IMG/VR virus record: IMGVR_UViG_2974624810_000001
Location: 32,001-96,000 of that record
DNA length: 64,000 bases
DNA from: a virus
Taxonomy: Duplodnaviria > Caudoviricetes
Strand: one strand, 5' to 3'
Part shown: positions 41,703 through 62,933 of the stretch, piece after piece
Position numbering within the stretch: the first letter of the stretch is position 1
Layout: each line of letters starts with the position of its first letter
Notes under the pieces: model-generated
Told to the model about the DNA's origin: nothing
The model's database searches: none
The model's input: the letters and a program-made list of their open reading frames with translations, nothing else
Program-made: the position numbers and the translations under genes

Positions 41703-41779
41703 TGGGGCGTATACCCTCTGTCTGATAAACAGTTGAAAGGTTAAGTGGTCACATGTGGGTTCAACTCCCACCGTCCCAA
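41703..41779 (+). tRNA. Non-canonical tRNA-Ile(GAT), relocated D-loop
   Basis: Acceptor, anticodon and T arms intact; no D hairpin; AGTGGT lies 3' of the anticodon arm. Confidence 0.75.
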
Positions 41780-41819
41780 CTGGTCTCAATGGTGAGACAC
41801 TGACAACACAACTAATACT

Positions 41820-43637
41820 ATGGTAGATTTCGACAAGAGACATTCCAAGGAACTTGTGAAACGCCCTGACACAGACCTGGAGATTTCCAGGTCTTTTCGG
41901 TCTTCCGGTCAGGGTGTATTTTCGCATGTCCGGAAGGGTGTCAAAATAACGAGTAAGGCCATTCTGGATTGGGTCTATCTGAATGACTATAAGGAAGAGA
42001 TTGCCAAGGCTAGAAGTGATGGCAATCTGGAAAAGGCCCGGAAGCTGAAGATAGAGCAGGAAAAGCGTAGTGAACCAAGACGTAAAAGGTTCTACTCCAT
42101 CCTTGCTGTAGTTATTGCAATAATGGGATGGGCTTACGTCACCTGGAAGATAGTTCCATTGATTGTCATTGGTGTCGCCGTCCTTGTTGCCATGTGGTTC
42201 GTAGGCAGTGGCATGAAGCCTCAGAATCTGGCCTCTGTCATTGCTGGAAAAGGTGATGAAGTCGATGACCCTATGGAGCCTTTTCCAATTGCCGACGCTC
42301 GAAACAGAGACGAGGCTCAGGAGTGCTTGAGACGAGCACTGCTTGCTGAGGGAATCACTCCCAGAGTTATCTTGGAGCCAGTTCGTTACAATTGGGGTTG
42401 GGAAATCCCGGTAGTTCTGAGAAAGGGTACTCCTGATGATGTAATGGCTAAGGCTAAGAAGATGGAGACACTACTAAGACTTCCTAGTGATGGAATGCTA
42501 GTAGCTGCTACTCGATTCCGGGCCGAAGTTGTCATCAGACTTATGCAGACTGACCCATTTGCTGATATGCCTCCAGACCAAAGAGCAGAGCCTTTGTCTC
42601 GTTCTATTAAGAACAAGTACAAGATTGCTCAGCGAATGGATGGTCAGCACATTGAAATCTCCTTGCTTAGAAATCACGCAGTTGTTATTGCTGCTCCTGG
42701 TGGCGGTAAGTCAATGTTCATGCGTAAGCTGGCAGACATCACCACTAGCTGTAGAGACTGTGTAACCTGGGACATTGACCCTGGCGGCAATGGACTCGAA
42801 GTTTTCGGAGGAGCTATCGCAAGGCGCGGTAGGACCGAAGAGGAAATTGAAGAAATGCTAACCGAGGCTTTGGAATACACGAAGATTCGTGCAAAGAAGC
42901 TGACGAAGCTGGGAATGGGTGACAACTGGCAGCCAAGCAAGGACCATCCTGCCCTCATTATCTTCATTGATGAGTTCATTCAGCTAAACAAGAAGTGCAA
43001 GGATTTGGCCATTCAGATTATTCGCAATGGTCGTAAGGCTGCTATTACCGTTGTTTTGGCTGCACAGCAGGCTACAAAGGACACTCTTGGCGCTGCTATT
43101 GCAGATGCAGTGTCTATCAAGGTAATGTTTGCTTCTCGTCATGCTGACGTACCTCTCGTGTTCGGTGAGGGCATGTTGTCACAGGGCTGGAGACCTGATA
43201 GACTGCATCCAGCTTCAGGTGAAGACGTGGAAGACGCTGGTAAGTGCTACATTTTGGGCGGTGGCTCAAGAGAGCCTTACCTGTACAAGGTCTATCCAAT
43301 AGAACCAGATGAAGCCATTGAGATGGGTGATGAGCGTGAAGCAGAGGGCATGCCCGAACTTGACACAGACACCTACCTTGATGTTACAGTGACAGACACA
43401 ACAGACAAGCTCATGTTCGAACACGTGCTTGACATCTTTGAGAACTTTGACGAGCATGACTGGCTACCAGCCAGCATCTTGGTCAAGGAACTCAAGGGTT
43501 ATGGCCACACCTTGACAGCTCGTCAGTTGCATGAGATTCTGGGAGACACCGGCAGAGAAAGCCGTATTTGGGATGGTTCCAAGTACAAGGTTGCTGGTTA
43601 CTTCCGTAGAAACATCGAGAAGCAATTGGAGAAGTAG
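41820..43637 (+). CDS. FtsK/TraB-like membrane DNA translocase
   Basis: Two TM helices, AAPGGGKS, DIDP, IFIDEF, GRKAAIT...AAQ, C-terminal wHTH-like domain ending in GY. Confidence 0.85.
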   Translation: MVDFDKRHSKELVKRPDTDLEISRSFRSSGQGVFSHVRKGVKITSKAILDWVYLNDYKEEIAKARSDGNLEKARKLKIEQEKRSEPRRKRFYSILAVVIAIMGWAYVTWKIVPLIVIGVAVLVAMWFVGSGMKPQNLASVIAGKGDEVDDPMEPFPIADARNRDEAQECLRRALLAEGITPRVILEPVRYNWGWEIPVVLRKGTPDDVMAKAKKMETLLRLPSDGMLVAATRFRAEVVIRLMQTDPFADMPPDQRAEPLSRSIKNKYKIAQRMDGQHIEISLLRNHAVVIAAPGGGKSMFMRKLADITTSCRDCVTWDIDPGGNGLEVFGGAIARRGRTEEEIEEMLTEALEYTKIRAKKLTKLGMGDNWQPSKDHPALIIFIDEFIQLNKKCKDLAIQIIRNGRKAAITVVLAAQQATKDTLGAAIADAVSIKVMFASRHADVPLVFGEGMLSQGWRPDRLHPASGEDVEDAGKCYILGGGSREPYLYKVYPIEPDEAIEMGDEREAEGMPELDTDTYLDVTVTDTTDKLMFEHVLDIFENFDEHDWLPASILVKELKGYGHTLTARQLHEILGDTGRESRIWDGSKYKVAGYFRRNIEKQLEK

Positions 43638-43638
43638 A

Positions 43639-43854
43639 ATGTGGACAGCAGGAGTCATCCTGTATATCGCAGTCTGCGCCTACCTTTGTAAGAAGAAGGG
43701 TTGGCAGATTCATTACATTGCCTGGGGTATGGTGGGTGGTCTCATTCTTGCGACCATCGTTCCTTCCCTTCCGGCGCAGACGAAGACAACAATGGAGAAT
43801 GCTGCTCAGGCAGTCGTTTCAATCTTCGAAAGTTCAGGCATCGGGCAGGGTTGA
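43639..43854 (+). CDS. Small membrane protein
   Basis: GGAG RBS; two hydrophobic segments; starts 1 nt after translocase. Confidence 0.65.
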   Translation: MWTAGVILYIAVCAYLCKKKGWQIHYIAWGMVGGLILATIVPSLPAQTKTTMENAAQAVVSIFESSGIGQG

Positions 43855-43879
43855 CAGCAGCTTTGCCCAGATGTAAGAT
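43851..43879 (+). promoter_or_regulatory. Promoter
   Basis: TTGACA-N17-TAAGAT. Confidence 0.75.
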
Positions 43880-43912
43880 GTACTTAAACCTAGTCCTTGT
43901 GGGACTAGAGGA

Positions 43913-43985
43913 GCGCCTGTAGCATAACGGTCGATGCATCTGTCTTATAAGCAGACGATAGGGGGTTCAATTCCCTCCAGGCGTA
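43913..43985 (+). tRNA. tRNA-Ile(TAT)
   Basis: TCTGT-CTTATAA-GCAGA; A73. Confidence 0.85.
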
Positions 43986-44013
43986 CTTTGTAACTACTAG
44001 AGCAGGGGGAATA

Positions 44014-44175
44014 ATGGCACTCTCTTTGTCTGATGGCACTCGTGTAGAAATTACTCGTGGTGACCACAAGGGAAAGAAGGGCACTGTTCGCATGCAGGGC
44101 AAGAACAAGGTTGTCATTCTTGACAACGCTGTTGTGCTCATGGGTGTGAGTGATTCAAACACCAAGAGGTTGTAA
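44014..44175 (+). CDS. Small KOW-motif protein (not in ORF track)
   Basis: GTRVEITRGDHKGKKGTV. Confidence 0.6.
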   Translation: MALSLSDGTRVEITRGDHKGKKGTVRMQGKNKVVILDNAVVLMGVSDSNTKRL

Positions 44176-44357
44176 TGAAATGCAAGAAATGCGGGGAAAC
44201 TAAGAAGGAAGTGCGCATTGCTCCCATCGTAGGCGACCCGCTATGTCAGAAGTGCTGGAACGACGTGCAAACTGATATGCGTCGAAAAGGTGCTACTGGC
44301 AAAATAGATTACGAAGAGTACGTCCGTGTACAATATCCAAGATGGCTGAGGAGCTAA
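44175..44357 (+). CDS. Small zinc-finger protein
   Basis: CxxC..CxxC; GAGG RBS. Confidence 0.6.
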   Translation: MKCKKCGETKKEVRIAPIVGDPLCQKCWNDVQTDMRRKGATGKIDYEEYVRVQYPRWLRS

Positions 44358-44358
44358 A

Positions 44359-44538
44359 ATGGAAAACAAGGACAAGCTTGAGTTCGGCACCAAGGTCACC
44401 ATTTTCGGTGAGCACGCAACCGTATGGGACCTCTGCGAAAATAACACAAGCGTAATCAAGGTTCTCATGAAGAATGGCCGATTCGCTGGTGATGTTCTCA
44501 TTGCTGTTCTCGGCAAGGTAAAGCTGGGTTGGCGATAA
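44359..44538 (+). CDS. Small hypothetical protein (not in ORF track)
   Basis: GAGGAG RBS; 59 aa. Confidence 0.55.
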   Translation: MENKDKLEFGTKVTIFGEHATVWDLCENNTSVIKVLMKNGRFAGDVLIAVLGKVKLGWR

Positions 44539-44552
44539 TTCGTCAGCTCATT

Positions 44553-44637
44553 GGAAAGTAAGCGATTGGCTAGCAGGCATCTTGGAACGGTGCTAAGGGT
44601 GTTACAGCCCGGCTGGGTTCGATTCCCAGGCTTTCCG
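44553..44637 (+). tRNA. tRNA-Ser(GGA)
   Basis: GCATC-TTGGAAC-GGTGC; long variable arm; G73. Confidence 0.82.
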
Positions 44638-44650
44638 CAGGAGGTGTGAT

Positions 44651-44869
44651 ATGATTATCTGTGGGGACACAGTTAAAGTTAAGCACGGCCGTCCCAACGT
44701 GGACCCTGATTACTACGGCAAGCGTGGTAGGGTTCATAAGCGTACTCGAATGCTCGGTGTTCTAGGAGCAGGACAGTATGAAATTATGTTCTTCGACAGG
44801 TCTCTCAATCATCCAATCATGGGTGTTATGGGTGGCTTCAATGAAGAAGACCTGGAAGTTGAACGATGA
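44651..44869 (+). CDS. Small SH3/KOW-like protein
   Basis: AGGAGG RBS; GDTVKV..YGKRGRV..F.EEDLE. Confidence 0.65.
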   Translation: MIICGDTVKVKHGRPNVDPDYYGKRGRVHKRTRMLGVLGAGQYEIMFFDRSLNHPIMGVMGGFNEEDLEVER

Positions 44870-44878
44870 CTTCCTTAT

Positions 44879-44964
44879 GGAAATGTTAACGTTGGCAGCG
44901 TGGAAGGCTCTTGAAAAGCCTACGCCGGTGAAACGGCGCGTCGGTTCGAATCCGACCATTTCCG
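44879..44964 (+). tRNA. tRNA-Ser(TGA)
   Basis: AGGCT-CTTGAAA-AGCCT; long variable arm; G73. Confidence 0.85.
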
Positions 44965-44981
44965 CTTAAAGAAGGAGAGTA

Positions 44982-45410
44982 ATGTCACTAACTGGTGAAG
45001 CAAAGCGCGAATACCAGCGTAAGTGGGTTGCTGACAGGAGAGCCGCTGGGATAGAATATCTCGGTGGCTCTTGTCGTATATGTGGAGCTACTGAGAATCT
45101 AAACGTGGACCACAAGGACGCATCCACAAAAGTTGACCACAGAATATGGTCTTGGGCCTGGGACAGAGCGCTTAAGGAATTGGACAAGTGTCAACTTCTC
45201 TGTGAGAAGCATCATAGGGAAAAGACAAAGGCCAATGGCGAAACAAATCTTGGCGAAAAGAACGGGCAGGCAAAGCTGACTGTTAACATTGTTAAGCAAA
45301 TCAGAGAAGAGTTTGCCAAGGGCGATATCACAAAGGCGGCTTTGGCGAGAAAATATCGAGTGGACGAAAAGGCTATTAGAGACCTTCTCGCCGGAAGAAC
45401 TTGGAAATGA
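44982..45410 (+). CDS. HNH endonuclease with C-terminal HTH
   Basis: LGG.CxxCG..L.VDH.D..KCQLLC..HH; GEKNG.AKLT..LARKY.V. Confidence 0.85.
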   Translation: MSLTGEAKREYQRKWVADRRAAGIEYLGGSCRICGATENLNVDHKDASTKVDHRIWSWAWDRALKELDKCQLLCEKHHREKTKANGETNLGEKNGQAKLTVNIVKQIREEFAKGDITKAALARKYRVDEKAIRDLLAGRTWK

Positions 45411-45559
45411 TGAGTAAAGGAAAGAAGCAAAAGGACTGTTACCATGTCAACGTAAGAAAGATTTACGGTGACGAAATCATAGCTTCTGGCTGGAAGAGAG
45501 CCTACTGCTATGATTGTAAAAGATACCTACCGGAACTACCTCCAGAGAGGAAAAAGTAA

Positions 45560-45748
45560 ATGGCCAAGGATTTTCCAAAGGGGAACAACAAGAAGGACTT
45601 CATCGAGTTCCTTGAAAAGAACAAGATTGAGTTTTGGTGCTCCATCTGCAACACCGAAAATCCTCGCAAGTGTCAGTGCTGGACAGACATTCAGCGTTGG
45701 GAGCAGGTAGAGCTGTGGCAGGGTGAGGAAAGGCGCAAGAAAAAGTGA
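45560..45748 (+). CDS. Small Cys-rich protein
   Basis: GAGG RBS. Confidence 0.55.
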   Translation: MAKDFPKGNNKKDFIEFLEKNKIEFWCSICNTENPRKCQCWTDIQRWEQVELWQGEERRKKK

Positions 45749-46137
45749 GCGCTGTTCTTCTAGGTGTGCTGATGCACTTCATTGGTGACTATCTCATTCA
45801 GACAGACTGGATGGCACAACTGAAGACAAAACGCTGGGCACCAGCAATTGTCCACGGTGTCACATACGGTGTCCCGTTTGTCTTTGTCACGATGTCACCG
45901 ATAGCTTTGGCTGTCATCATTGTCACTCACATTGTCATCGACCATTATCGCCTGGCACGACATGTCGTCTGGGCAAAGAATCAGCTCGCCCCCAAGGAAT
46001 GGCGTTATTCATGGGCTGAGGGAAACCTCACTGGATATCGCAATGACGCACCGCCTTGGCTGACAACTTGGCTGATGATTATTGCGGACAACACAATCCA
46101 CATTGTCATCAACACTCTGGCCATCCTCTATCTATGA
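45745..46137 (+). CDS. Membrane protein (DUF3307-like)
   Basis: HFIGDY..QT.WMA..K, H...Y, H..ID, DN..H. Confidence 0.8.
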   Translation: MSAVLLGVLMHFIGDYLIQTDWMAQLKTKRWAPAIVHGVTYGVPFVFVTMSPIALAVIIVTHIVIDHYRLARHVVWAKNQLAPKEWRYSWAEGNLTGYRNDAPPWLTTWLMIIADNTIHIVINTLAILYL

Positions 46138-46145
46138 GGATGGCT

Positions 46146-46245
46146 TTTGTCATTCCCAGGACACTTTGTCATCTGTCCAGTGACACGTCCTGGGACATGA
46201 GGACATGTCCAGTGACATTCATGTGACATGTCCCAGGGCTGTCCT
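46146..46245. repeat. GACA/TGTC repeat locus
   Basis: 12 GACA/TGTC cores in 100 nt; TGTCCAGTGACA at 46174 and 46206. Confidence 0.85.
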
Positions 46246-46511
46246 CGAAATTTGAAAAATGGCGGGCGGCTCCGTATTCGCATCTCGTTTGTTCATTTGC
46301 GAGAGGGCGGCCCGGCGGCCCAGAAGGCGGAACTATGTCTTAAGAACCAGATGCAAGGAAGGGACCTAATGAGGTTCAAGGAGGGAGTTGACAGGATTCT
46401 AGAAGAGGTGCTAAGGTGTAGTTACACTAGAAAATATAAAGAAAAAGATGTTGAAAAACATCTAGAACCGATTAGAAATAGGTTCTAAATAATATAGAAT
46501 AAGATAAGGAT

Positions 46512-46799
46512 ATGAGACTCTTTGAACTTCATAGAGACGTAGATTCATCTGGCGTCTCTGGAACAGGAGTGGTAGCTCAGGGTGTAGAGTTTGACAGTGG
46601 TCAGTGTGCTATGACATGGTTGACCGAGTGGAACTCAGTAGCAGTCTATCCAGACATCACCACCCTTGAAGCAATCCATGGACACAACGGCAACACTCGT
46701 GTAGTCTATGTAGAAGGCCCAGTAACCGAGAGGCATGTCATTGTAGCTGGTAAGAAGGTTCCAGTCCGCACAGTTGACAGGTTCTCCGACAACCGCTAA
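46512..46799 (+). CDS. Hypothetical protein
   Basis: AAGGA RBS; F.L.R..D.SGVSGTG.VA.G..F..HGH.G.T motif. Confidence 0.75.
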   Translation: MRLFELHRDVDSSGVSGTGVVAQGVEFDSGQCAMTWLTEWNSVAVYPDITTLEAIHGHNGNTRVVYVEGPVTERHVIVAGKKVPVRTVDRFSDNR

Positions 46800-46880
46800 A
46801 GTAGAACATAGAGCAGGTCGGCAAGCAGGTAAGTGAGGAACACAGGAGCTTGAGCCACAACCCCTCCACCTAGCTCTCTT

Positions 46881-46956
46881 GCGTCTGTAGTATAGTCTGG
46901 TCCAATGCACCTGATTGTCAATCAGGAAATCGCGGGTTCAAATCCCGTCAGGCGCG
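46881..46956 (+). tRNA. tRNA-Asp(GTC)
   Basis: CCTGA-TTGTCAA-TCAGG; G73; promoter 46774-46802. Confidence 0.92.
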
Positions 46957-46985
46957 CACTAAAGTATAATCAACCGTGAGGAATC

Positions 46986-47156
46986 ATGAAGAGTAACTGG
47001 AAGTATTCCGCCCATTACAAATCTCCAAGCGGTGGCAAGGCTTCAATTACAAGTCAGGTCAAAGCCAACACCTTTGATGAAGCTTACGAACAAGTTCGTG
47101 ACCAGCTTAAGCATCAGAGCTTTGAGCTTGTTGGCATGGAATTGAGGAAGATGTAA
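46986..47156 (+). CDS. Small hypothetical protein (not in ORF track)
   Basis: GAGGA RBS; 56 aa. Confidence 0.55.
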   Translation: MKSNWKYSAHYKSPSGGKASITSQVKANTFDEAYEQVRDQLKHQSFELVGMELRKM

Positions 47157-47328
47157 TGGCAATCAGATTTTGTCCAAGCTGCATGCAAAATGTAGTGACA
47201 GAACCAACAGGTCCAAAATGCTCTCACTGTGGTGGGAACACGAAGCCTGTTGACAATAAGCTTCCGAAGCCGGAAGAGATTTTGAAGAAGTACACTTTCC
47301 GTAAGCCAAAACACAGAAAGCCTTAAAT

Positions 47329-47574
47329 ATGGCTGATAAGCTATGGCTCGTAGAGGGTCATTATACGAAGAACGGCACGAAGGAAACATTCGATAATGTT
47401 TTCTCTGCCTCTAACAAGTCCGGCGCTGAGAAGGCTGCAAAGAAGGATTTTGACAGCTATGTAAGTGCTGGATATGAGAAGAACGCAAAGTTCGGCAAGC
47501 TGACTGTTACTAAGGTCAGCGAGTGGACAGAGAAGGACCGCAAGGCATTTCTCAAGAAGAAGGGCATCAAGTAA
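47329..47574 (+). CDS. Hypothetical protein
   Basis: Similar to next ORF. Confidence 0.65.
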   Translation: MADKLWLVEGHYTKNGTKETFDNVFSASNKSGAEKAAKKDFDSYVSAGYEKNAKFGKLTVTKVSEWTEKDRKAFLKKKGIK

Positions 47575-47801
47575 TGTCAGTCATTGGCAAGAAGCCAAAC
47601 TGGACTGTTATAGGTAAGCTTGATGTGACATATCCAGGTCAGAAGAAGAAGACCGAAGAGTTCTGCAACTCATTTGTTGCGAAGAACAAGGCTGATGCAA
47701 TCAAGCAGGCTCAGAAGCTGTTTGATGAGATGAAGGATGACATCCCTGGTGTCACTTATGCCAATCTTCGCGCTCTGAAGGCAGAGCCTAGCGGTTGGTG
47801 A
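47574..47801 (+). CDS. Hypothetical protein
   Basis: TAATG coupling; similar to previous ORF. Confidence 0.65.
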   Translation: MSVIGKKPNWTVIGKLDVTYPGQKKKTEEFCNSFVAKNKADAIKQAQKLFDEMKDDIPGVTYANLRALKAEPSGW

Positions 47802-47821
47802 ACAGGGCCCGAAAGGGCTAT

Positions 47822-47892
47822 CCCGGCATAGTGTAGTGGAAACACGATACGTTGTCAGCGTATTATCGAGGGTTCAATTCCCTCTGTCGGGA
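47822..47892 (+). tRNA. tRNA with Asp(GTC) anticodon, atypical acceptor
   Basis: ATACG-TTGTCAG-CGTAT; C1:G72, A73. Confidence 0.8.
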
Positions 47893-47896
47893 CAAA

Positions 47897-48009
47897 GTGG
47901 GTCGAACGAGATATCGGTTATCTAAATTCCCTTGAAATGAATAAAGGCAGGTTCGAATCCTGCATCGCCCAAGGAACGGGCAATCTCCGATTCTCAACAA
48001 TATATCCAC
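47897..48009 (+). ncRNA. Y-RNA-like RNA 3
   Basis: GTGGGT/ATCCAC, GTCGAACG, T-arm GCAGG-TTCGAAT-CCTGC, GCCC/GGGC hairpin; 760 nt upstream of Ro60. Confidence 0.78.
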
Positions 48010-48014
48010 CAAAT

Positions 48015-48751: not shown

Positions 48752-48768
48752 AAAGGGCCGGTAACAAA

Positions 48769-50421
48769 ATGTCAAACGCACTTAACAACGCTGCTAAGGG
48801 TCTCAACAAGACTGTTCAGACTCAGCGTGCTCGCCAGGACCAGGTACAGAACAACGCTGGAGGATTCGTCTTCCAGGTATCTGACCAGGCCAGGCTTGAG
48901 CGATTCCTTATTCTGGGTGTCGATGGTGGCACCTATTACGTCAAGGAAGTCGACCACGCCGAAAAGAGCGTAAGCTTCCTGAGCAAGATGATTGAGAAGG
49001 ACGAGGCGAGTGTGCTTCGTACCATTGTGGACGTGTCTGTCAATGGTCGTGCATATCGTCAGACTCCAGCTCTGTTCGCTCTCGCCATGCTGATTGCCAA
49101 CGGCAACAACAAGCAGGCTGTGAAGGCTGAGTTCAACAAGGTTGTTCGTACTGGTACCCACCTTTACGAAGTCCTGAACTTCCTGACTTCACTTGAGGTT
49201 GGATGGGGTCGTGCCAAGCGAGAGATTATTGCTTCTTGGTTTGACCGAGATGCTGACAAGCTGGCTTACCAGGCGGTCAAGTACCGTCAGCGTAGGTTCG
49301 GTGAGCAGTCTTGGACTCTCCGAGATGTAATGCGTCTTTCTCACCCACGCAATGTGAACACATCCGTTGCTGATTTTGTCCTGGGCAAGCCTCACGACGC
49401 TATCGATGACCTTCGGGCCATTGAGGGCTTCAAGAAGATGCAGCAGGCCAAGACTGTTGACGAGGTTCACGCTGTTCTCCGTGAGTACGAGATGCTTCCA
49501 TGGGAGACAATCCCAACTCAGTTCCACAAGGACGTGAGTGTGTGGAAGCGAATCTTCGCTAACGGTCAGCTTCGTGGTCAGGCTCTAGTCCGAAACATCA
49601 CTCGCCTAGCGAAGATTGGTGCTTTCAAGGACATGCGTTTCGCTGCTGCGTATGCAGGACAGCTCACGAATCAGGAGATGATTAGGCAGACTCGTCTGCA
49701 CCCAATCAACTTCTTGAACGCGGTTGTTGTGTACACCGAAGGCCAGATGAAGACCGTAAGGGACCGTTATGGCTGGGAGCGTGAGGAGCGTGTTCGTGGC
49801 TGGGAAGTCGAGAGTGTTATCGTGGATGCCCTCAATGAGGGATTCCACCTGGCATTCAAGACTGTGGAGCCAGCAGGTAAGCGAACGATGCTTGCTATTG
49901 ACGTATCAGGTTCTATGAGTGCAAAGGCTAGTGGTCTCGACCTTAGCTGCGCTCAGGTCTCTGGTGCAATGGCAATGACCATCGCTCGTACCGAGCCAGC
50001 TCACATCATCCGTGGTTTTACTGCGGGTAGTGGATACGGTTGGGGTCGTGCAAACGGTCTAACCGACCTTGGTATCAGTGCTCGTACAGACCTTGCTACG
50101 GCAATGCGTAATGTACAGCGCCACAACTGGGGCGGTACGGATTGTAGCCTTCCAATTCGTTGGGCACAGGAGAACGGTGTAGATGTTGACACCTTTGTGG
50201 TTATCACTGATAACGACACATGGGCTGGTGACATTCACCCATTCCAGGCGCTCAAGGAGTACCGTAAGAAGACCGGAATCGACGCTCGCATGGCAGTTCT
50301 GGGAGTTCAGGCAACTGAGTTCACCATTGCTGACCCACGTGACCGTGGAATGATGGACTTCGTAGGATTTGACAGCAATGCACCTCGTGTGCTGGCTGAC
50401 TTCTCCGCTGGTCGTATCTGA
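48769..50421 (+). CDS. rsr: Ro60/Rsr TROVE-domain RNA-binding protein
   Basis: NNAGGFVF..RLERFLILG..GGTYY; YQAVKYRQR..RDVMRLSHP; DVSGSM vWA; GGTDCSLP; TIADP.D.GM.D.VGFD. Confidence 0.96.
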   Translation: MSNALNNAAKGLNKTVQTQRARQDQVQNNAGGFVFQVSDQARLERFLILGVDGGTYYVKEVDHAEKSVSFLSKMIEKDEASVLRTIVDVSVNGRAYRQTPALFALAMLIANGNNKQAVKAEFNKVVRTGTHLYEVLNFLTSLEVGWGRAKREIIASWFDRDADKLAYQAVKYRQRRFGEQSWTLRDVMRLSHPRNVNTSVADFVLGKPHDAIDDLRAIEGFKKMQQAKTVDEVHAVLREYEMLPWETIPTQFHKDVSVWKRIFANGQLRGQALVRNITRLAKIGAFKDMRFAAAYAGQLTNQEMIRQTRLHPINFLNAVVVYTEGQMKTVRDRYGWEREERVRGWEVESVIVDALNEGFHLAFKTVEPAGKRTMLAIDVSGSMSAKASGLDLSCAQVSGAMAMTIARTEPAHIIRGFTAGSGYGWGRANGLTDLGISARTDLATAMRNVQRHNWGGTDCSLPIRWAQENGVDVDTFVVITDNDTWAGDIHPFQALKEYRKKTGIDARMAVLGVQATEFTIADPRDRGMMDFVGFDSNAPRVLADFSAGRI

Positions 50422-53971: not shown

Positions 53972-54080
53972 AGGAACATAGTTTAATAGGTAAAACCGCG
54001 AAATGCAATGTCGAACGCAGCCTGAACGCTGCTAGTAGATAACAGAGTAGCAATTGTCGGTTCGAATCCGGCTGTTCCGC
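53972..54080 (+). ncRNA. tRNA-like RNA with anticodon arm replaced by a larger domain
   Basis: GGAACA/TGTTCC acceptor, D arm GTTT-AATAGGTA-AAAC, T arm GTCGG-TTCGAAT-CCGGC, about 55 nt between them. Confidence 0.6.
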
Positions 54081-54224: not shown

Positions 54225-54296
54225 GGTCCTTTAGCTGAGATAGATTAGCGATAGCCTGAAAAGCTTTAGAGGTCGGTGCGATACCGTCAGGGACCA
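54225..54296 (+). tRNA. tRNA-Phe(GAA), atypical T loop
   Basis: AGC-CTGAAAA-GCT; T loop TGCGATA. Confidence 0.8.
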
Positions 54297-54378: not shown

Positions 54379-54453
54379 GCCCCAGTATTGGCCCGGCCTT
54401 CTAAGCCAGAGGCGCATAACGGAAAGATGCAGGTTCGAATCCTGTCTGGGGTG
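54379..54453 (+). tRNA. Non-canonical tRNA-Arg(TCT), relocated D-loop
   Basis: GCCCCAG/CTGGGGT; GGC-CTTCTAA-GCC; TAACGGA before T arm. Confidence 0.7.
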
Positions 54454-54728: not shown

Positions 54729-54732
54729 AGGC

Positions 54733-55066: not shown

Positions 55067-55076
55067 ATGGGCCTAT

Positions 55077-56029: not shown

Positions 56030-56061
56030 TTGTAAAGAGAGCGGAAGGGTAGAATCTTCAA

Positions 56062-56534: not shown

Positions 56535-56611
56535 TCCCACGATACACCTGTGTGGCTCGGTGTAGCAGACTGTTAATCTGCCGGTCGCTGGTTCGACTCC
56601 AGCCGTGGGAG
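56535..56611 (+). tRNA. tRNA-Asn(GTT), 6-bp D stem
   Basis: GCAGA-CTGTTAA-TCTGC; TACACC/GGTGTA. Confidence 0.82.
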
Positions 56612-57143
56612 CTGGCCGCCAAAGCTAGGGGAGATAGCTACCTCTGGCAAGGATAAACCGGATGATAGGCTATGGTATTCTAGACAGGCTATAGTTGAAG
56701 ACAAGGTGGAAACCCAGAGGCAAACTGGGGCACGGCCAACCAATTGATGTGGTAGCTCAACTACAAGAGGTGAGTAGCAGTAATGACTGTGTCTGAGCTT
56801 ATTAAGGCATTGAGTGAGATGGACCAGAATGCGACTGTCGTCATGGTGGTTGATGTTCCAGGACCAGAGATTGACATCGACTTGGTAGAGGCTTCAAAGG
56901 GCTACTACTCAGGTGACGATGTGGTTGAACTGAGTTAAGCTTTACAACAGCACGTAGATTGTTCGTGTACCTTTGGTTTTACGGCTTTTTAAATCTTAGG
57001 AGCGGACATGAAGAAGGGTTTAGCGGCCCTACCCAATCAAGAGGAAGCCGTTGAGATTGGTCGTGCTACAGTAAAAGAGCGGATGTTGGGACCGCTTCAA
57101 GCAAGAGACGTCGCTCAAAGACGGAGTGCTGCATCCCTTCCTA

Positions 57144-57216
57144 TGGCCTATAGCTTAATCGGCAGAGCGGTTGGTTGTTACCCAATCTGGTGTAGGTTCG
57201 AATCCTGCTAGGTCAG
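57144..57216 (+). tRNA. tRNA-Asn(GTT)
   Basis: GTTGG-TTGTTAC-CCAAT; G73. Confidence 0.85.
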
Positions 57217-57382
57217 CTCGCACAGAGATTATATCAACGTGCTCTCGTAGAGTCCCAACTTAGGTTGGGACTTTCTGCGTTGAGGCCCGGTGGTGTTGAC
57301 AGGTCTCCTTACTTCCAGTAGAGTAGTAACAAGCAAGCAGCCACAAAGTATGCTATCCTATTCAAACAATAGGAGGCAAACA

Positions 57383-57550
57383 ATGAGGTTCGCTTTTGGA
57401 CTAAGACCAGGACATGTTACTAAGCATGGTACAGTCGTAGCAGTGCAGAAAACCTTCGATGGTAAGCACATGCAGTTGACACTAGCTGGTCGGTCAGATA
57501 ATGTAGTCATAAGCAAGTACACAATCGTCCGAACAACATTCTGGAGTTAA
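57383..57550 (+). CDS. Small hypothetical protein
   Basis: AGGAGG RBS; promoter 57296-57324. Confidence 0.6.
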   Translation: MRFAFGLRPGHVTKHGTVVAVQKTFDGKHMQLTLAGRSDNVVISKYTIVRTTFWS

Positions 57551-57551
57551 A

Positions 57552-57953
57552 GTGTCAGACGCCACTGAGGCTGAGGACAAGGCCGAAGAGGAAATCAGTG
57601 ACAGTCTTGATGACGGTCGTCCTATCAAGGAGATTGTCAAGGATGCGGCCAAGGCGTATGCTGTTGCCAAGGGTCGCAAGGCTTTCTTCGCTGCTGTAAA
57701 GCTGATGAAGGCCAAGGAAAAGGAAAAGGGCGGCGAGAAGAAGAACACGAAGGGCGTAAAGGCTATGCAGAAGAAGGCGTCTCAGCTTCGCGTTGGAGAC
57801 ATCACTTCTAATGGTGAAGTCCTCACCATTAGCAAGTCCCCTGTGGACCGCAAGCAGTTCGAAATCGTCTTCATGGGCCCTTCTGGTTCTGACCGTCAGG
57901 TTGTTGACCAGAACACCAAGTACGAAGTTGTTGAGCGTCGAAGCATCCGCTGA
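57552..57953 (+). CDS. Hypothetical protein
   Basis: GGAG RBS; C-terminal ASQLRVGD SH3-like part. Confidence 0.65.
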   Translation: MSDATEAEDKAEEEISDSLDDGRPIKEIVKDAAKAYAVAKGRKAFFAAVKLMKAKEKEKGGEKKNTKGVKAMQKKASQLRVGDITSNGEVLTISKSPVDRKQFEIVFMGPSGSDRQVVDQNTKYEVVERRSIR

Positions 57954-57972
57954 ACAACGGCCTTCGGGCCAA

Positions 57973-58044
57973 GTCCCTATAGTTTAGAGGATAGAACGTC
58001 ACTCTCCTAAAGTGAAGACGCAGGTTCGACTCCTGCTGGGGATA
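57973..58044 (+). tRNA. tRNA-Arg(CCT), canonical
   Basis: TCACT-CTCCTAA-AGTGA; D loop GGA (A20). Confidence 0.9.
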
Positions 58045-58045
58045 C

Positions 58046-58243
58046 ATGTTGAATGAAGACAGACAGCGAGTTTACCTGCGAGACAGGAAGACGTATACTC
58101 CGAAACAGGTAAGACGCCTTAACAAGAAATACTGGCAAGGAAAGTTCATCGATGATGACTACGCACCTTGTCCCAGTTGTGGTGGTCCATATGACCACAG
58201 CGAGGCGGCATGTCAAGGAGATTACGAAGAGAATTGGAGTTGA
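58046..58243 (+). CDS. Small hypothetical protein
   Basis: ORF between tRNA and promoter. Confidence 0.45.
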   Translation: MLNEDRQRVYLRDRKTYTPKQVRRLNKKYWQGKFIDDDYAPCPSCGGPYDHSEAACQGDYEENWS

Positions 58244-58282
58244 CGCGAAGCCCGGTAGGGTGTAGAGTAGTCAACAGAACAA

Positions 58283-58357
58283 GGGAGCGTAGCTCAGTCT
58301 GGTCGGAGCAATGCACTGATAATGCATCGGTCGCTGGTTCAAATCCAGCCGTTCCTA
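58283..58357 (+). tRNA. tRNA-Ile(GAT), canonical
   Basis: ATGCA-CTGATAA-TGCAT; promoter 58240-58268. Confidence 0.92.
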
Positions 58358-58361
58358 CTTC

Positions 58362-58433
58362 GGGGTCGTAGCATAACGGTAATGCACTTGTATGGCATAC
58401 AAGCGATTGTGGGTTCAAATCCCATCGACTCCA
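58362..58433 (+). tRNA. tRNA-Ala(GGC)
   Basis: CTTGT-ATGGCAT-ACAAG; G3:U70. Confidence 0.9.
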
Positions 58434-58602
58434 CGCAGTTTTATCAGTTTCTGGCCCAACATGAAACTGAACGAGGCAGGTTCTAGCAGACCTAATTGGG
58501 TGCAAGGTATAGCCCGTATACCCCTTGCAGCGTACAGACCACATGTGCTAGCATGGTACGTATACTAGAGAGTATGCGGCTGGTCCCCAATTACTCTCAC
58601 TT

Positions 58603-58675
58603 GCTCCGGTAGCTCAGTTGGCAGAGCAGGGGACTCTTAATCCTCGTGTCGCTGGTTCAAGTCCAGTTCGGAGTA
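58603..58675 (+). tRNA. tRNA-Lys(CTT)
   Basis: Loop CTCTTAA; canonical D and T arms. Confidence 0.92.
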
Positions 58676-58802
58676 CAAAGCAAGGTTGCAAACTTGCTCA
58701 ATCACATTGGGGTTCGATTCCCTCTGGTGAAACAATGTGGTGTAATTGAGAGGAAAAGGCGGAGGCACATAATAAAGCCTTGCTGTCTAGCCGCTCTCTT
58801 AT

Positions 58803-58877
58803 GGTCCAGTCGCACAGTCTGGTAGTGCAATTGACTTTTAATCTTTGTGGACGTGGGTTCGAATCCCACCTGGACCA
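58803..58877 (+). tRNA. tRNA-Lys(TTT)
   Basis: Loop CTTTTAA; weak anticodon stem; GGTCCAG/CTGGACC-A. Confidence 0.8.
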
Positions 58878-58930
58878 CTTCAAAGTCTTCGAAATTGGCT
58901 TAATAGTTCGAAGTCAATTACAATCAGAGT

Positions 58931-59365
58931 ATGAAGACATGCTATGATTGTAAGAAGGAAAAGCCATTCAGCGAGTTCGCCAAGAACAAGGCTCGTAAAG
59001 ATGGTCACAATGGACAGTGTAAGTCATGTAAGAACGCTTACACAAAGAAGCATTACAGTGATAACAAAGATTACTATGTAGGTAAGGCTCGCAAAAATGG
59101 TGAGTCCTATCGGGCGGCAGCTAGAGAGTTTCTGTGGGACTATCTAAGCAAGCATCCATGTATTGACTGTGGAGAGTCTGACCCGATAGTATTGGAACTA
59201 GACCACAGAAATGGTGTGACGAAGGTCAAAGGTCTTGGGCCAATGGCCAAGGATGGCTCGCTTGACAAGATGAGAGCAGAGCTACTAAAATGTGATGTGA
59301 GATGTTGCAACTGCCATCGACGCAGAACAGCAAAGCAATTTGGTTGGTGGCAGTTGCTTAAATAA
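58931..59365 (+). CDS. HNH endonuclease (paralog of 53401)
   Basis: HPCIDCGESD..LELDH..KCDVRC.NCH. Confidence 0.88.
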   Translation: MKTCYDCKKEKPFSEFAKNKARKDGHNGQCKSCKNAYTKKHYSDNKDYYVGKARKNGESYRAAAREFLWDYLSKHPCIDCGESDPIVLELDHRNGVTKVKGLGPMAKDGSLDKMRAELLKCDVRCCNCHRRRTAKQFGWWQLLK

Positions 59366-59366
59366 T

Positions 59367-59442
59367 GCCCTAGTATCCGCTCTGGCTTCGAACCAGTTGA
59401 AACGGTAATGGATACATGTAGGTTCGAATCCTATCTGGGGCA
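59367..59442 (+). tRNA. Non-canonical tRNA-Arg(TCG), relocated D-loop
   Basis: GCCCTAG/CTGGGGC; CTGG-CTTCGAA-CCAG; TAATGGA before T arm. Confidence 0.78.
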
Positions 59443-59644
59443 CTTGACATAGCCAAGATGGCATGTCATTGTTAAGGGCACAGCGGACAAGGCTTAGGCG
59501 GATGAAACAGGCCGGTGGGATGCGAGTGGCTGACCAGTCCTTGACACAAGCGGGGAACGTTGAGTATGCTAACCTCATAGAGGAACGACGACTAACAAGT
59601 TCCCCGCTTTTTAATAAACAACTATAGTAACTAGGAGTTACACA

Positions 59645-60310
59645 ATGGGTCTTTTCGGTAAGAAGGACAACAAGGGCACTACGTCTGACGGAGCATCTGC
59701 GACTCAGGCTGCGCCTGCGGTCTCTACCGGTAAGCTCAATCTGAGTAAGGGTGGCAGCTCTGCTTTCAGCCTGGAAAAGGGCACGCGAGTCACTGCTACT
59801 CTTGAGTGGGATGGCGGAAGTTCAGCCCGTCGTGCTCGTGGTGCGGACCTTGAGCTTTATGCTCTGTACGTCACTAAGGGCAAGGCAAACAAGATGCGCA
59901 AGGATGCTGGTGGCGCAGTCTATTGGAACAACCTGGCAGCAGATGGCATTCGTCATCTTGGTGACTCCCTTGTTCCTGGCAAGGAGACTGTTGTCATTGA
60001 GCGTACTGACAACATTGCGTACGTTCTCATCGTTGCCTACTCTGCTGTAAGCAACGGTCCTGGCTCCTTCAAGTCTTTCGGGGCTAAGGCTGTTGTCACT
60101 GATGGCAAGGGTCAGACTGTGACGGCTCCTCTGTATAACGACAATCACGGCAGCTACTGGGTAGCCATCGCGCTTGTTGATTTCACTGTAGAGGGACAGG
60201 TTGCCATCAAGCACGTTGAGGATTACTCTCGTGGTGGTGAGCGTCGTCCGGTTCTGTATTCTGACGGTTCTCACAAGATGGATGTTGGCCCGGTCGAGTT
60301 CAAGAGTTGA
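59645..60310 (+). CDS. TerD/TerZ-like stress-domain protein
   Basis: LNLSKG..L.W..ADLELYA..VYWNNL..GIRH.GD; AGGAG RBS; promoter 59541-59570. Confidence 0.7.
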   Translation: MGLFGKKDNKGTTSDGASATQAAPAVSTGKLNLSKGGSSAFSLEKGTRVTATLEWDGGSSARRARGADLELYALYVTKGKANKMRKDAGGAVYWNNLAADGIRHLGDSLVPGKETVVIERTDNIAYVLIVAYSAVSNGPGSFKSFGAKAVVTDGKGQTVTAPLYNDNHGSYWVAIALVDFTVEGQVAIKHVEDYSRGGERRPVLYSDGSHKMDVGPVEFKS

Positions 60311-60335
60311 CACACTCGACAGGATGATGTAGAGT
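60307..60335 (+). promoter_or_regulatory. Promoter for a non-coding structured region
   Basis: TTGACA-N17-TAGAGT. Confidence 0.75.
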
Positions 60336-60543
60336 AGTAAACATCAGGGAAACCCGCTCAAACTTGGCCTAAGAAGCCCGGTGGCGTTCAGGGAAGCGGG
60401 GATGTGTGGTAGAGTGAACGTACCCACACAAGGCCAAAGTAGAAAGTCCCCGAAATGGTCTTGACAAATTGCTGGGCAAGCGCTACAGTCGAAGAGGTGG
60501 AGCGAAAGCAGAGAAGCCAATGACTCGACCCAAAGCGCTATAT

Positions 60544-60615
60544 GGCAGTGTGGTGAAACGGCTATCACGTTCCCCTCATAAGGGAAAATCGAAGGTTCGA
60601 TTCCTTCCATTGCTA
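60544..60615 (+). tRNA. tRNA-Met(CAT), elongator-like (Ile2 not excluded)
   Basis: TTCCC-CTCATAA-GGGAA; promoter 60461-60489. Confidence 0.88.
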
Positions 60616-60617
60616 CT

Positions 60618-60689
60618 TGCAGGTTAGTGAAACGGTATCACGTAGGGCTCATAATCCTAAATTCCTGTTCGAATCAGGGCCTGCCCCCA
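60618..60689 (+). tRNA. tRNA-Met(CAT), initiator-like
   Basis: TAGGG-CTCATAA-TCCTA; 1:72 mismatch; appears 1 nt short at T/acceptor junction. Confidence 0.7.
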
Positions 60690-61078
60690 CGTAACACAAA
60701 CAATCAAGCGATACACAACAAGGAGAAATAACATGCCTGGTCCTCTTTCTACCCCGAACTCCTCCAAGCCGATGACTCAGAAGGAGCTTCGGGAGCGCGT
60801 TGAGAACCTGATGCGGGGTAAGGCTCCGCAGACTGGCAAGACTGCGAAGAAGCGCGGTCACTGACTTTCAAGGAGATTAAATGCACGGTAAGAGTGTAAA
60901 GTATCTCAACACAGCACACTCTGAATCAGAGCGTGATAGGATGGTCAAGGATTTTGAGAAGGCTCTGAAGAGGAACAAGCTGCCTGGTAGAATTGAGGCA
61001 GAGTTCCGAAGGGTCAAGTACACCCATCAGTGGGACATCTACCACATAGTAGATTGAAAAAAGGCCCTTTGGGGCTAT

Positions 61079-61160
61079 GCGTAAGCGGCGAAGTTGGAGA
61101 GACGCGGTGGTCTGTAAAACCATTCCTTCGGGTGAGTCAGTTCGAATCTGACCTTACGCA
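61079..61160 (+). tRNA. tRNA-Tyr(GTA)
   Basis: GTGGT-CTGTAAA-ACCAT; variable arm. Confidence 0.9.
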
Positions 61161-61216
61161 CGTACAGTATAATAGAAAGAAGAGGTTGTAGCAGCTCCTC
61201 TGGAAAAGCTGCCTAT

Positions 61217-61288
61217 GCATGTAAGCCAGGGATAAGCTAGGCGGGCCTGTAAAGCCCTACCTCGATGGTTCGAATCCGTCTACATGCA
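61217..61288 (+). tRNA. tRNA-Tyr(GTA), atypical, no long variable arm
   Basis: GCATGTA/TACATGC-A; GGGC-CTGTAAA-GCCC. Confidence 0.72.
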
Positions 61289-61387
61289 CCGGGGTCACAT
61301 CCTACCCCGAAGCTTACAGCTTGACTTTCTCTCTACAGGGCCCGTAGAATTAAGAGAAGCCAGGCCGAGGAGCAAAGGATGTCCTAT

Positions 61388-61462
61388 GGTGGCTGTATCA
61401 TAAAAGTAATGTACTAGGCTGTGAACCTAGGTAAGAGGGGGCGGTACCCTCCAGTCACCCCA
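61388..61462 (+). tRNA. tRNA-His(GTG), atypical T loop
   Basis: G-1:C73, encoded CCA; CTAGG-CTGTGAA-CCTAG; T loop GGCGGTA. Confidence 0.82.
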
Positions 61463-61485
61463 AGTAGGTTAACTCCTACAATCAT

Positions 61486-61561
61486 GGGGTTGGTAGCTCA
61501 ATTGGATTAGAGCGCTGCGTTGTGGTCGCAGTGGTTGAGGGTTCGAGTCCCTTCCTTCCCA
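61486..61561 (+). tRNA. tRNA-His(GTG)
   Basis: CTGCG-TTGTGGT-CGCAG; two acceptor mismatches; A73. Confidence 0.8.
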
Positions 61562-61743
61562 CTTGTTAGTCACCTGTGCTGCTAGGGATAATGGGCAGCC
61601 TCGCATAGGGTGCAAGGATTGCAGGAAACTCGGCGCGCAGAGACCAGCAATCTCGTAAAAAGCTATCCCGGAAACTTGGGTGGCTGTACGGCAAAAGGTC
61701 CGTATGGTGATATCTCTCCAAACTCCCTAAAGGTTTGGCGCAA

Positions 61744-61815
61744 GGGCATGTAGCTCAGTTGGTAGAGCGTCGGTGTGAAGTACCGAGTGCGAGGGTTCGA
61801 TTCCCTACTTGCCCA
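61744..61815 (+). tRNA. tRNA-Phe(GAA)
   Basis: TCGGT-GTGAAGT-ACCGA. Confidence 0.85.
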
Positions 61816-61816
61816 C

Positions 61817-62146
61817 ATGAATAGAATGAGAAAGGCAGCCAGTGTTGCTAGCCTTCTTCTCGTTCTTGTTGGATGCGGTAGCGATAACAAGGATAGTCTA
61901 ACAACTACAGACAAAGCGTATGTTAAAACGTTGAGAGAAGAAATCACTGGTGTCAAGGATATGAGCGACAATAAGCTAATCGCTCTGGCGCATGAAGCTT
62001 GTGCTGGTTCTGACAATGGTGATGAGTTCAATGAAACCGTTCGCAAAGTCAGTAGTTATGGCCTGACAGAAAGTGATTCTGCTTACCTTACAGGAGCTGC
62101 ATTCGCTGCGTATTGTCCAGATAATGTAAGTAAAATCGGAAGCTGA
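61817..62146 (+). CDS. Lipoprotein (DUF732-like)
   Basis: Signal peptide with LVGC lipobox; D..Y...L..AC..A.AAYCP. Confidence 0.75.
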   Translation: MNRMRKAASVASLLLVLVGCGSDNKDSLTTTDKAYVKTLREEITGVKDMSDNKLIALAHEACAGSDNGDEFNETVRKVSSYGLTESDSAYLTGAAFAAYCPDNVSKIGS

Positions 62147-62147
62147 C

Positions 62148-62387
62148 ATGATGCAAATAGACATTAGATACTCATTCGGAAACGGGCCCTACACAGTAGG
62201 TGGAGAGATTGATGAAGTTCCATTCGAGATGACATATCACGATGGAGAGGCATATCTCATCGTCTTGACTGACGACTTCGTTCTTCGAACATTCTGTGTC
62301 TACAGTCCAATGCATGGCAAGCTGGATAATCTGATGACAGGGCAGTTGATATTCAATTTGGCCCGGCAGCTTGACAGCGAAGCTTGA
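62148..62387 (+). CDS. Hypothetical protein
   Basis: ORF in operon. Confidence 0.55.
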   Translation: MMQIDIRYSFGNGPYTVGGEIDEVPFEMTYHDGEAYLIVLTDDFVLRTFCVYSPMHGKLDNLMTGQLIFNLARQLDSEA

Positions 62388-62406
62388 TTCCTGTAAGGTA
62401 GTTTAT

Positions 62407-62480
62407 GAGGTAGAAGCAACGGGTGTTGCCGACAGTCTGCAAAACTGTTCGTATTTGGAGTTCGACTCTCCTCTATCTCT
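62407..62480 (+). tRNA. tRNA-Cys(GCA)
   Basis: ACAGT-CTGCAAA-ACTGT; U73; promoter 62371-62399. Confidence 0.85.
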
Positions 62481-62496
62481 CTGGTACAATAGAAAT

Positions 62497-62571
62497 GCCT
62501 CGTTAGCTCATTTGGTGTAGAGCGACGCTCTTGTAAAGCGTAGGTGGTCGGTTCGAAACCGACACGAGGCT
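62497..62571 (+). tRNA. tRNA-Thr(TGT)
   Basis: ACGCT-CTTGTAA-AGCGT. Confidence 0.92.
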
Positions 62572-62664
62572 CAATGAGGAGTCATGCTGGGGAGAATGCA
62601 ACCGAACTAGCCTCTGGCAAATCAGGACGGTCTAGTAGCTAGTTGCAGGCGAACGGCCTTTAAT

Positions 62665-62737
62665 GCCTAGTTAGTGACAGTGGTAGAACATTTCCTTGGT
62701 ACGGAAAAGGTCGTGGGTTCGATTCCCACACTAGGCT
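62665..62737 (+). tRNA. tRNA-Thr(GGT)
   Basis: TTTCC-TTGGTAC-GGAAA. Confidence 0.9.
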
Positions 62738-62856
62738 CGTTATGAATACAATTAAGCTAAGGCTCAAGGCTTTGTTTCACAAGGCTAAGCCATATATCCC
62801 ACTAGCACTCGCTTGGTGGAAGTCACGCAAGAACAAGACTCGCTAAGAGTCTTCAT

Positions 62857-62933
62857 ACTCTCGTATACCCTCTGGCTACGAACCAGTTGAAAGGTTAAAG
62901 GACTACATGGAGGTTCGAATCCTCTCGGGAGTG
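62857..62933 (+). tRNA. Non-canonical tRNA-Arg(ACG), relocated D-loop
   Basis: ACTCTCG/CGGGAGT; CTGG-CTACGAA-CCAG; TAAAGGA before T arm. Confidence 0.78.

Follow-up and report, generated by a model that had tools for sequence, protein, structure and literature searches.

A phage-borne family of putative arginine and isoleucine tRNAs in which the D-loop segment appears to lie 3' of the anticodon arm

Circularly permuted transfer RNA (tRNA) genes, such as those of Cyanidioschyzon merolae, and the permuted tRNA-like domains of the bacterial Y RNA YrlA demonstrate that the parts of a tRNA can be encoded in a non-standard order. These permutations are circular and involve the whole molecule, and in the alga processing restores the cloverleaf. 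A D hairpin is absent, and the anticodon stem is extended, in the D-armless tRNAs of metazoan mitochondria, including mt-tRNA-Ser(AGY) and those of nematodes (PMC7609411, PMC9427863), and in the engineered mini HisT (PMC11551756), all of which are shortened and lack both G18/G19 and a canonical elbow. The tRNA-like structure of turnip yellow mosaic virus (PMC9976931) attains a synthetase-recognised L shape through a different strand topology, but it forms the 3' end of a genomic RNA, contains a pseudoknotted acceptor and is not a decoder. According to a 2024 paper, all known bacterial tRNAs are cloverleaves (PMC11551756), and a 2020 review of non-canonical tRNAs contains no phage or permuted case. 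Here we describe four genes in a 64,000-nucleotide (nt) stretch of Caudoviricetes DNA (positions 32,001 to 96,000 of IMG/VR record IMGVR_UViG_2974624810_000001, hereafter the window) that appear to encode tRNAs with the D loop placed 3' of the anticodon arm. No account of this fold in phages emerged from full-text literature searches, in agreement with an earlier note, made from the letters of the window, whose author knew of none.

The window forms part of the genome of a cluster-BE Streptomyces phage (131,976 bp, 49.5% GC); a 6-kb query from the window matches ∼87 phages of that cluster with ∼85% identity, among them Bmoc, Braelyn and Yaboi. The four genes, designated by their first positions (41703, 54379, 59367 and 62857), are 75 to 77 nt in length and unannotated. 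Each is characterized by a 7-bp acceptor stem, U8-A9, a 5-bp T stem with a 7-nt UUCRA(NY) loop, and a 7-nt anticodon loop of the form CU-NNN-AA. There is no trace of a D hairpin after A9; indeed, A9 is separated from the anticodon stem by only 5 to 6 nt. Pairing of at least 3 bp spans the anticodon arm, after which comes a D-loop-like UAA(N)GG-N segment. The letters, when re-read at all four loci, agree with the sequences and layout given in the earlier note. With canonical tRNA-Arg and tRNA-Ile (RF00005; for example, Arg(UCG), Arg(ACG) and Ile(GAU) of Bmoc) these genes share the acceptor, U8, the UUCRA T arm, U33 and A37 of the anticodon loop, the D-loop pattern AAYGGA(U)A with A20 or U20, the discriminator, the overall length and the location within an array. 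Whereas the canonical molecules contain a D hairpin and an anticodon at nt 34-36, the rewired genes have no such hairpin, display the anticodon at nt 22-24, appear to carry segment 10-21 after a linker that replaces 44-48, and possess an additional linker of ∼3 nt before the T stem. In contrast to the mitochondrial D-armless tRNAs and mini HisT, they keep and relocate the D-arm nucleotides and are of normal length. Unlike circular permutations, they have only an internal segment moved, and their covariation agrees with the order in which the parts are encoded. Their L shape would, like that of the viral structure, be reached by another strand topology, but they are free-standing genes with normal acceptor and anticodon arms.

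In our estimation there is a probability of roughly 0.75 that the four genes are functional elongator tRNAs (Arg with anticodons ACG, UCG and UCU, and Ile with GAU) belonging to a phage-borne family in which canonical segment 10-21 has been moved. This segment, which comprises the 5' strand of the D stem and the D loop, would have been transferred from its usual place between residues 9 and 22 to a site between the variable region and the T arm, where it would be followed by a linker of ∼3 nt, usually ending in AU. The predicted order of parts is acceptor, U8 A9, residues 22-25, residue 26, the anticodon arm (27-43), a linker of 4 to 9 nt in place of 44-48, residues 10-13, the D loop (14-21), the short linker, the T arm and the acceptor. 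For class A, the proposed numbering reads U8 A9, U22 A23 C24 C25, C26, 27-43 (27.43 being U.U), U44 G A A A, then G10 G11 U12 U13, A14 A15 .. G18 G19 N20 .. A21, C A U, and the T stem. Judged from sequence, the enclosing helix is the stand-in for the D stem, and the UAA..GG-N segment supplies A14, A15, G18, G19 and an identity-specific N20. The enclosing helix would stack on the anticodon stem to provide the usual ∼ten layers, G18 and G19 would dock on the T loop, U8 would pair with A14, and A15 would pair with the U that precedes the T stem, such that the L shape would be rebuilt with altered strand connections. In the coaxial stack of canonical tRNA, strand 10-13 continues strand 39-44 beyond a nick, residue 9 lies in the groove of the D stem beside residue 23, and residue 21 is positioned beside residues 8, 14 and 48. 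Given these spatial neighbors, the new junctions (9 to 22, 44 to 10 and 21 to 49) would join residues that are close in space. The transcripts would be matured by host RNase P and the host CCA-adding enzyme, the genes of the window encoding no CCA. Host arginyl-tRNA synthetase (ArgRS) would read A20, C35, G/U36 and A/G73, host isoleucyl-tRNA synthetase (IleRS) would read the anticodon, U20 and A73, and the rewired Arg tRNAs would decode the CGU, CGA and AGA codons of the phage.

The earlier note had proposed a covariance model and a search of phage genomes. Such a model, R1, built on the proposed structure, separates this design from ordinary tRNAs and finds relatives: the four genes score 42 to 97 bits (93.9 for 41703, 96.3 for 59367 and 97.2 for 62857) and family members 42 to 100, versus less than 30 for every ordinary tRNA. 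Across the whole 131,976-bp genome its matches are exactly the four genes. A broader model, R2, places members at 46 bits or more and other tRNAs at 38.6 or less, with the four genes at 68.9 (54379) to 91.2. BLAST searches with the four genes produced matches in dozens of BE phages, nearly all of them unannotated, and, beyond that cluster, in Loccivirinae phages (TunaTartare, Gilson), phages of Microbacterium (A3Wally, Zooman), Rhodococcus (Trina, NiceHouse) and Alishewanella, and a 462-kb uncultured phage. The gene at 41703 is identical in 35 BE phage records and unannotated in all those listed; 59367 is identical in Braelyn, Persimmon, WhereRU and Navo, with 92% identity in TunaTartare; and 54379 occurs in ∼25 phage records, including Rhodococcus phage NiceHouse and Alishewanella phages. 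In Microbacterium phage A3Wally the core of Arg(ACG) is the same, but the acceptor and T stems differ in a compensating manner. Salmonella phage Felix O1 contains, at 25951-26029, an Arg-UCU gene recognized by R1 with an enclosing helix of CUC/GAG and an encoded CCA. Many further members came from pattern scanning of IMG/VR, of metagenomes and of species genomes; ARAGORN calls none of them, and at all 12 of the metagenome and metagenome-assembled genome (MAG) loci checked the rewired gene is surrounded by a dense tRNA array. An anticodon-blind landmark scan of all DNA fetched gave 90 distinct members of 74 to 82 nt from 78 loci, with 18 types of enclosing helix. In 185,579 species genomes, pattern scanning returned 11 matches, only one of which is a true member; it lies on a 9.8-kb MAG contig with a dense tRNA array and is probably viral.

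In a model-based alignment of 27 sequences (26 of them distinct), 98.2% of the pair cells are standard, as compared to 62.9% after shuffling and at most 50% with the partners slid. Changes on both sides occur in 17 of the 19 pairs, among them every pair of the enclosing helix (three) and of the anticodon stem (four), and the paired cells amount to 98.9% in the acceptor and 99.2% in the T stem. An alignment of this type is fitted to the structure, and thus the helix test was repeated from landmarks alone, with nt 11-13 taken as the 5' strand and the three bases before UAA as the 3' strand. The enclosing helix was fully paired in 38 of 47 distinct sequences, whereas 10,000 shuffles gave a mean of 8.1 and a maximum of 18. 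The covariation of this helix was first seen among the genes of the window, and on the 27-sequence alignment each of the four helices covaries. U33 is present in all 47 sequences and A37 in 46, and the anticodon stem contains 4 to 5 bp, except at 54379. The anticodon loop begins at nt 20 in 85 of the 90 members, 12 nt earlier than the ordinary nt 32, a shift of the same length as segment 10-21. Between the enclosing helix and the anticodon loop lie 6 nt, matching positions 26-31 of an ordinary tRNA. Positions 15 and 48 are almost always A15/U48, with a single U15/A48, and are too invariant for covariation of the Levitt pair.

The anticodons of the 90 members are confined to Arg (60: UCU 28, ACG 12, UCG 11, CCU 9), Ile (28: UAU 14, GAU 14) and CAU (2). 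The base following GG is A in 60/60 Arg members and U in 26/28 Ile members and in both CAU members (Fisher 3e-20, with kinship ignored), and so the rule that had been proposed from the four genes, A for Arg and T for Ile, extends to nearly the entire family. The discriminator is A in all 28 Ile members and A or G in 48 of the 60 Arg members. The bacterial identity set for Arg consists of A20, C35, U/G36 and A/G73, and that for Ile includes G16, U20, U21, U12-A23 and A73 (Giege and Eriani 2023, PMC9976931). The Ile gene of the window reads A14 A15 G16 U17 G18 G19 U20, with an A-U pair at the would-be U12-A23 site. No search pattern imposed the correlation between N20 and the amino acid, which provides the strongest indication that the relocated segment is recognized as a genuine D loop. 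The anticodons can be arranged in a network of one-base changes (ACG-UCG-UCU-CCU and UCU-UAU-GAU/CAU), and position 20 is read by both synthetases; the family may therefore plausibly descend from a single rewired ancestor, followed by switches of anticodon and N20. Taken together, the compensatory changes seen in phages from five or more host genera, the rules at position 20 and the discriminator, the canonical anticodon loops, the array setting and the single slot per Arg anticodon in three phages (see below) support what the earlier note had proposed at its core, namely that these are real, maintained tRNAs with a true D loop 3' of the anticodon arm.

Several points weigh against this interpretation. 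Folding of single sequences recovers the acceptor and T arms and only part of the core, with z values (-0.83, -2.24, +0.09 and -0.76) that fall short of significance, and the enclosing helix is short, at 3 bp (5 with a bulge at 54379). Two Ile(GAU) members carry A after GG. The member set was gathered in part with patterns requiring UAA..GG and a UUCRA T loop, so the conservation of both is partly by construction, and the members are related, so that the counts represent non-independent events. The reconnections in three dimensions are deduced from the textbook geometry of canonical tRNA. Finally, one RNA-seq run and several possibly RNA-derived metagenome runs, with contigs containing phage parts, gave no usable coverage of the odd genes, their ends or their strand.

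The shortness of the helix and the ambiguity of the single-sequence folds would also suit D-armless tRNAs of the mitochondrial kind, perhaps functional in translation. In such molecules the stretch that follows the anticodon arm would be no more than an extended, flexible variable loop, the helix would simply continue the anticodon stem, and a canonical elbow would be lacking. The alignment to the Rfam tRNA model, with its deleted D arm and 18 nt of added variable region, can be read in this manner, and an engineered D-armless tRNA-His does function with Escherichia coli HisRS, EF-Tu and ribosomes (PMC11551756). We nevertheless hold such an arrangement to be improbable. The members, at 74 to 82 nt, show none of the mitochondrial shortening; the pattern A14 A15 .. 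G18 G19 N20 is retained, as are the UUCRA partners of G18 and G19 in the T loop; and AAUGGAUA is common to the odd Arg(UCG) gene and the D loop of its ordinary counterpart, Arg(UCG), in Bmoc. That N20 tracks identity is hard to explain unless the synthetases read the segment as a D loop.

A plus-strand tRNA array spans 39.5-63 kb of the window, in which ARAGORN identifies 33 tRNAs, none of them one of the four odd genes. These are the sole source of the ACG, UCG and UCU anticodons not only in the window, as had been claimed, but in the whole genome, where the only ordinary Arg tRNA is CCU. The Arg codons in the long open reading frames of the phage are CGU (28%), AGA (18%), CGA (17%), AGG (15%), CGC (14%) and CGG (8%), such that CGU, CGA and AGA account for 63%; these three codons are rare in high-GC Streptomyces. 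At the sites of the window Ile(GAU), Arg(UCG) and Arg(ACG) genes, Bmoc has cloverleaf tRNAs of the ordinary kind and of matching anticodon. In the alignment to Bmoc, the sequences flanking the Ile gene are nearly identical on both sides and the gene interior is exchanged, whereas at the two Arg sites the conserved flank is the downstream one only. The window phage, Bmoc and Yaboi each have a single gene per Arg anticodon in their main array; of the twelve slots that the four anticodons thus make up, six are filled by rewired and six by ordinary genes. Metagenomic arrays are complementary in the same way; one of them (L107) contains 23 ordinary tRNAs, with none for Ile, together with rewired Ile(GAU) and Ile(UAU). 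What the analysis of the window contributes is its four members (three Arg isoacceptors and one Ile), the slot-for-slot alternation with ordinary alleles in sister phages, and the rule at position 20 over 90 members.

The array also contains genes that bring to mind tRNA mimics with no role in decoding, either decoys for host anticodon nucleases or tRNA-binding defence proteins, or ligands of a phage Ro60. A Ro60 homologue with TROVE and vWA_Ro60 domains is located at 48769-50421 (+), and the Ile gene is immediately preceded by an RlaP-like RNA-repair nucleotidyltransferase (PF10127, 26 bits; 41101-41688, +). A role for phage tRNAs in countering host tRNases has been proposed (PMC10264068). 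Rfam identified no Y RNA near the Ro60 gene. A decoy, however, has no need of an N20, a discriminator and an anticodon that all fit one synthetase, nor need it be the sole gene for the anticodon of heavily used codons, and ordinary and rewired alleles substitute for one another slot for slot. A mimic function thus strikes us as decidedly improbable.

Every part of a normal tRNA is present and the order alone differs, and the transcripts might accordingly be imagined as precursors that are cut and re-joined into ordinary cloverleaves, as are those of the permuted red-algal genes; some carrier phages do contain an RNA ligase (A3Wally gene 169) or RNA-repair genes. The exchange of two adjacent internal segments would, however, call for cutting and ligation at several exact points, motifs of the bulge-helix-bulge or intron-like type were not seen, and no ligase was present in the BE phage regions read. 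Moreover, the helix covaries in the gene-encoded order, and the UUGAAA and CAU linkers are conserved as if in the final RNA, all of which makes re-joining very unlikely indeed. Decay into pseudogenes, to which the failure of gene finders and the lack of annotation in most GenBank records might point, is scarcely credible in light of the compensatory changes in all helices, the intact anticodon loops, the 100% conservation over many isolates and the presence across distant phage groups. In addition to Ro60 and the RNA ligase, the array of A3Wally contains a peptidyl-tRNA hydrolase.

As to the purpose of the rewiring, the earlier note had suggested possible evasion of host tRNA-targeting defences, for which the RlaP-like and Ro60 genes offer at most a circumstantial context. 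It is conceivable, though we think it unlikely, that the transposed D arm hides phage-only tRNAs, charged by host ArgRS and IleRS and active in decoding, from a tRNA-directed nuclease or other factor that needs a contiguous D hairpin, with ordinary and rewired alleles alternating with the defences of the hosts. Whereas loop changes have been proposed for mycobacteriophage tRNAs (PMC10264068), the rewired genes have ordinary anticodon loops. The alternation of alleles in sister phages makes the purpose directly testable. If the proposed fold is correct, it would show that the bacterial translation machinery requires the L shape rather than cloverleaf connectivity, and the family would provide both a natural test bed for the reading of position 20 by ArgRS and IleRS and new orthogonal tRNA scaffolds. 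The coordinates of the four genes and their parts are listed in Table 1.

Table 1. Locations of the four rewired tRNA genes and their proposed parts in the window (paired strands are joined by "with").
Gene	Position	Strand	Length (nt)	Acceptor	U8 A9	Enclosing helix	Anticodon stem	Anticodon	Linker	D-loop-like segment	T arm	Discriminator	Remark
Rewired tRNA-Ile(GAU)	41703..41779	+	77	41703-41709 with 41772-41778	41710-41711	ACC 41713-41715 with GGU 41739-41741	41718-41721 with 41729-41732	GAU 41724-41726	UUGAAA 41733-41738	UAAGUGGUCACAU 41742-41754	41755-41771	A 41779	CCA not encoded
Rewired tRNA-Arg(UCU)	54379..54453	+	75			54389-54393 with 54411-54416, G36 bulged		UCU 54400-54402		UAACGGAAAGAU 54417-54428	54429-54445	G 54453	Class B variant
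Rewired tRNA-Arg(UCG)	59367..59442	+	76			CCG 59377-59379 with CGG 59403-59405		UCG 59388-59390		UAAUGGAUACAU 59406-59417	59418-59434	A 59442	
Rewired tRNA-Arg(ACG)	62857..62933	+	77			ACC 62867-62869 with GGU 62893-62895		ACG 62878-62880		UAAAGGACUACAU 62896-62908	62909-62925	G 62933	

The gene at 54379 requires separate comment. A helix does enclose its anticodon arm, as the earlier note had it, but this helix is longer than was written there and is composed of U11-A38, G12-C37, a bulged G36, G13-C35, C14-G34 and C15-G33. The anticodon stem is formed by 3 bp and a C.A mismatch, and with the five pairs of the enclosing helix the stack would again reach ∼ten layers. In the class B relatives the anticodon stem covaries (GGC/GCC, GGU/ACC, CGC/GCG, UUGU/ACAA), and variation in the enclosing helix is limited to G-C to G.U changes.

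The Rfam tRNA model (RF00005) aligns the four odd genes end to end, with 15 D-arm positions deleted and ∼18 nt inserted in the variable region. The scores of 25 to 32 bits (30.3 for 41703, 29.5 for 54379, 32.0 for 59367 and 25.2 for 62857) lie around the gathering score of 29 bits, with that of 62857 falling below it. For tRNA finders the design would represent a systematic blind spot; three of the four Arg isoacceptors of the window phage are overlooked, and its tRNA count and codon-coverage analyses would therefore be wrong. In GenBank, rewired Arg genes are labeled tRNA-Val(aac) in Yaboi (NC_048730, 86686-86764), tRNA-OTHER in Trina (NC_042040, 104372-104450) and tRNA-Ser in an Alishewanella phage (OQ508956, 17417-17495), and in NiceHouse (MT521992, 100906-101046) a hypothetical-protein coding sequence is annotated over the gene. 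All of these readings were rejected: the supposed second anticodon loop, UCGUUAACAGCG, is not conserved, being UUGAAA elsewhere, and the CU-NNN-AA hairpin is invariant.

Three members from other contigs have unusual anticodons. One, at L060 2906-2980 (-), is an odd member with the loop CCUACAC, C33 and a Val-like UAC anticodon. Those of L178 and L071 (1378-1453) display a CAU anticodon, U20 and A73, and could be either lysidine-dependent Ile2 or Met tRNAs.

Weak Rfam tRNA matches in the window at 54225, 61217, 61389 and 53972 were screened for Arg anticodons, and all were rejected as such; they read Phe-GAA, Tyr-GUA, His-GUG and an insert-bearing tRNA-like RNA, respectively. The Phe(GAA)-like gene (54225-54296, +) has a D loop without GG and a T loop of UGCGAUA rather than UUCRA, both elbow partners thus being altered together; it scores 44 bits with Rfam and is missed by ARAGORN, and its counterpart in Yaboi is annotated as tRNA-Phe. 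The second Tyr(GUA)-like gene (61217-61288, +; 72 nt, Rfam 32 bits) is without the long variable arm that is usual in bacterial tRNA-Tyr. The His(GUG) tRNA-like gene (61389-61459, +), 71 nt in length, adjoins an ordinary tRNA-His on its upstream side and has a 7-bp acceptor, no D stem (UCAUAAAAGUAAUGUA) and a T loop of GGCGGUA; it scores 40 bits with Rfam and is likewise missed by ARAGORN. The fourth, at 53972-54080 (+), is a 109-nt RNA with acceptor, D and T arms in which ∼55 nt take the place of the anticodon arm; it is situated 3.5 kb downstream of the Ro60 gene. In IMG/VR and metagenome contigs there are Lys(UUU)-like genes of 69 to 70 nt (L029 1501-1569 (-) and 1592-1661 (-), and L103 92-160) that contain acceptor, anticodon and T arms with neither a D hairpin nor a GG segment, and these may represent a truly D-armless type of phage tRNA.

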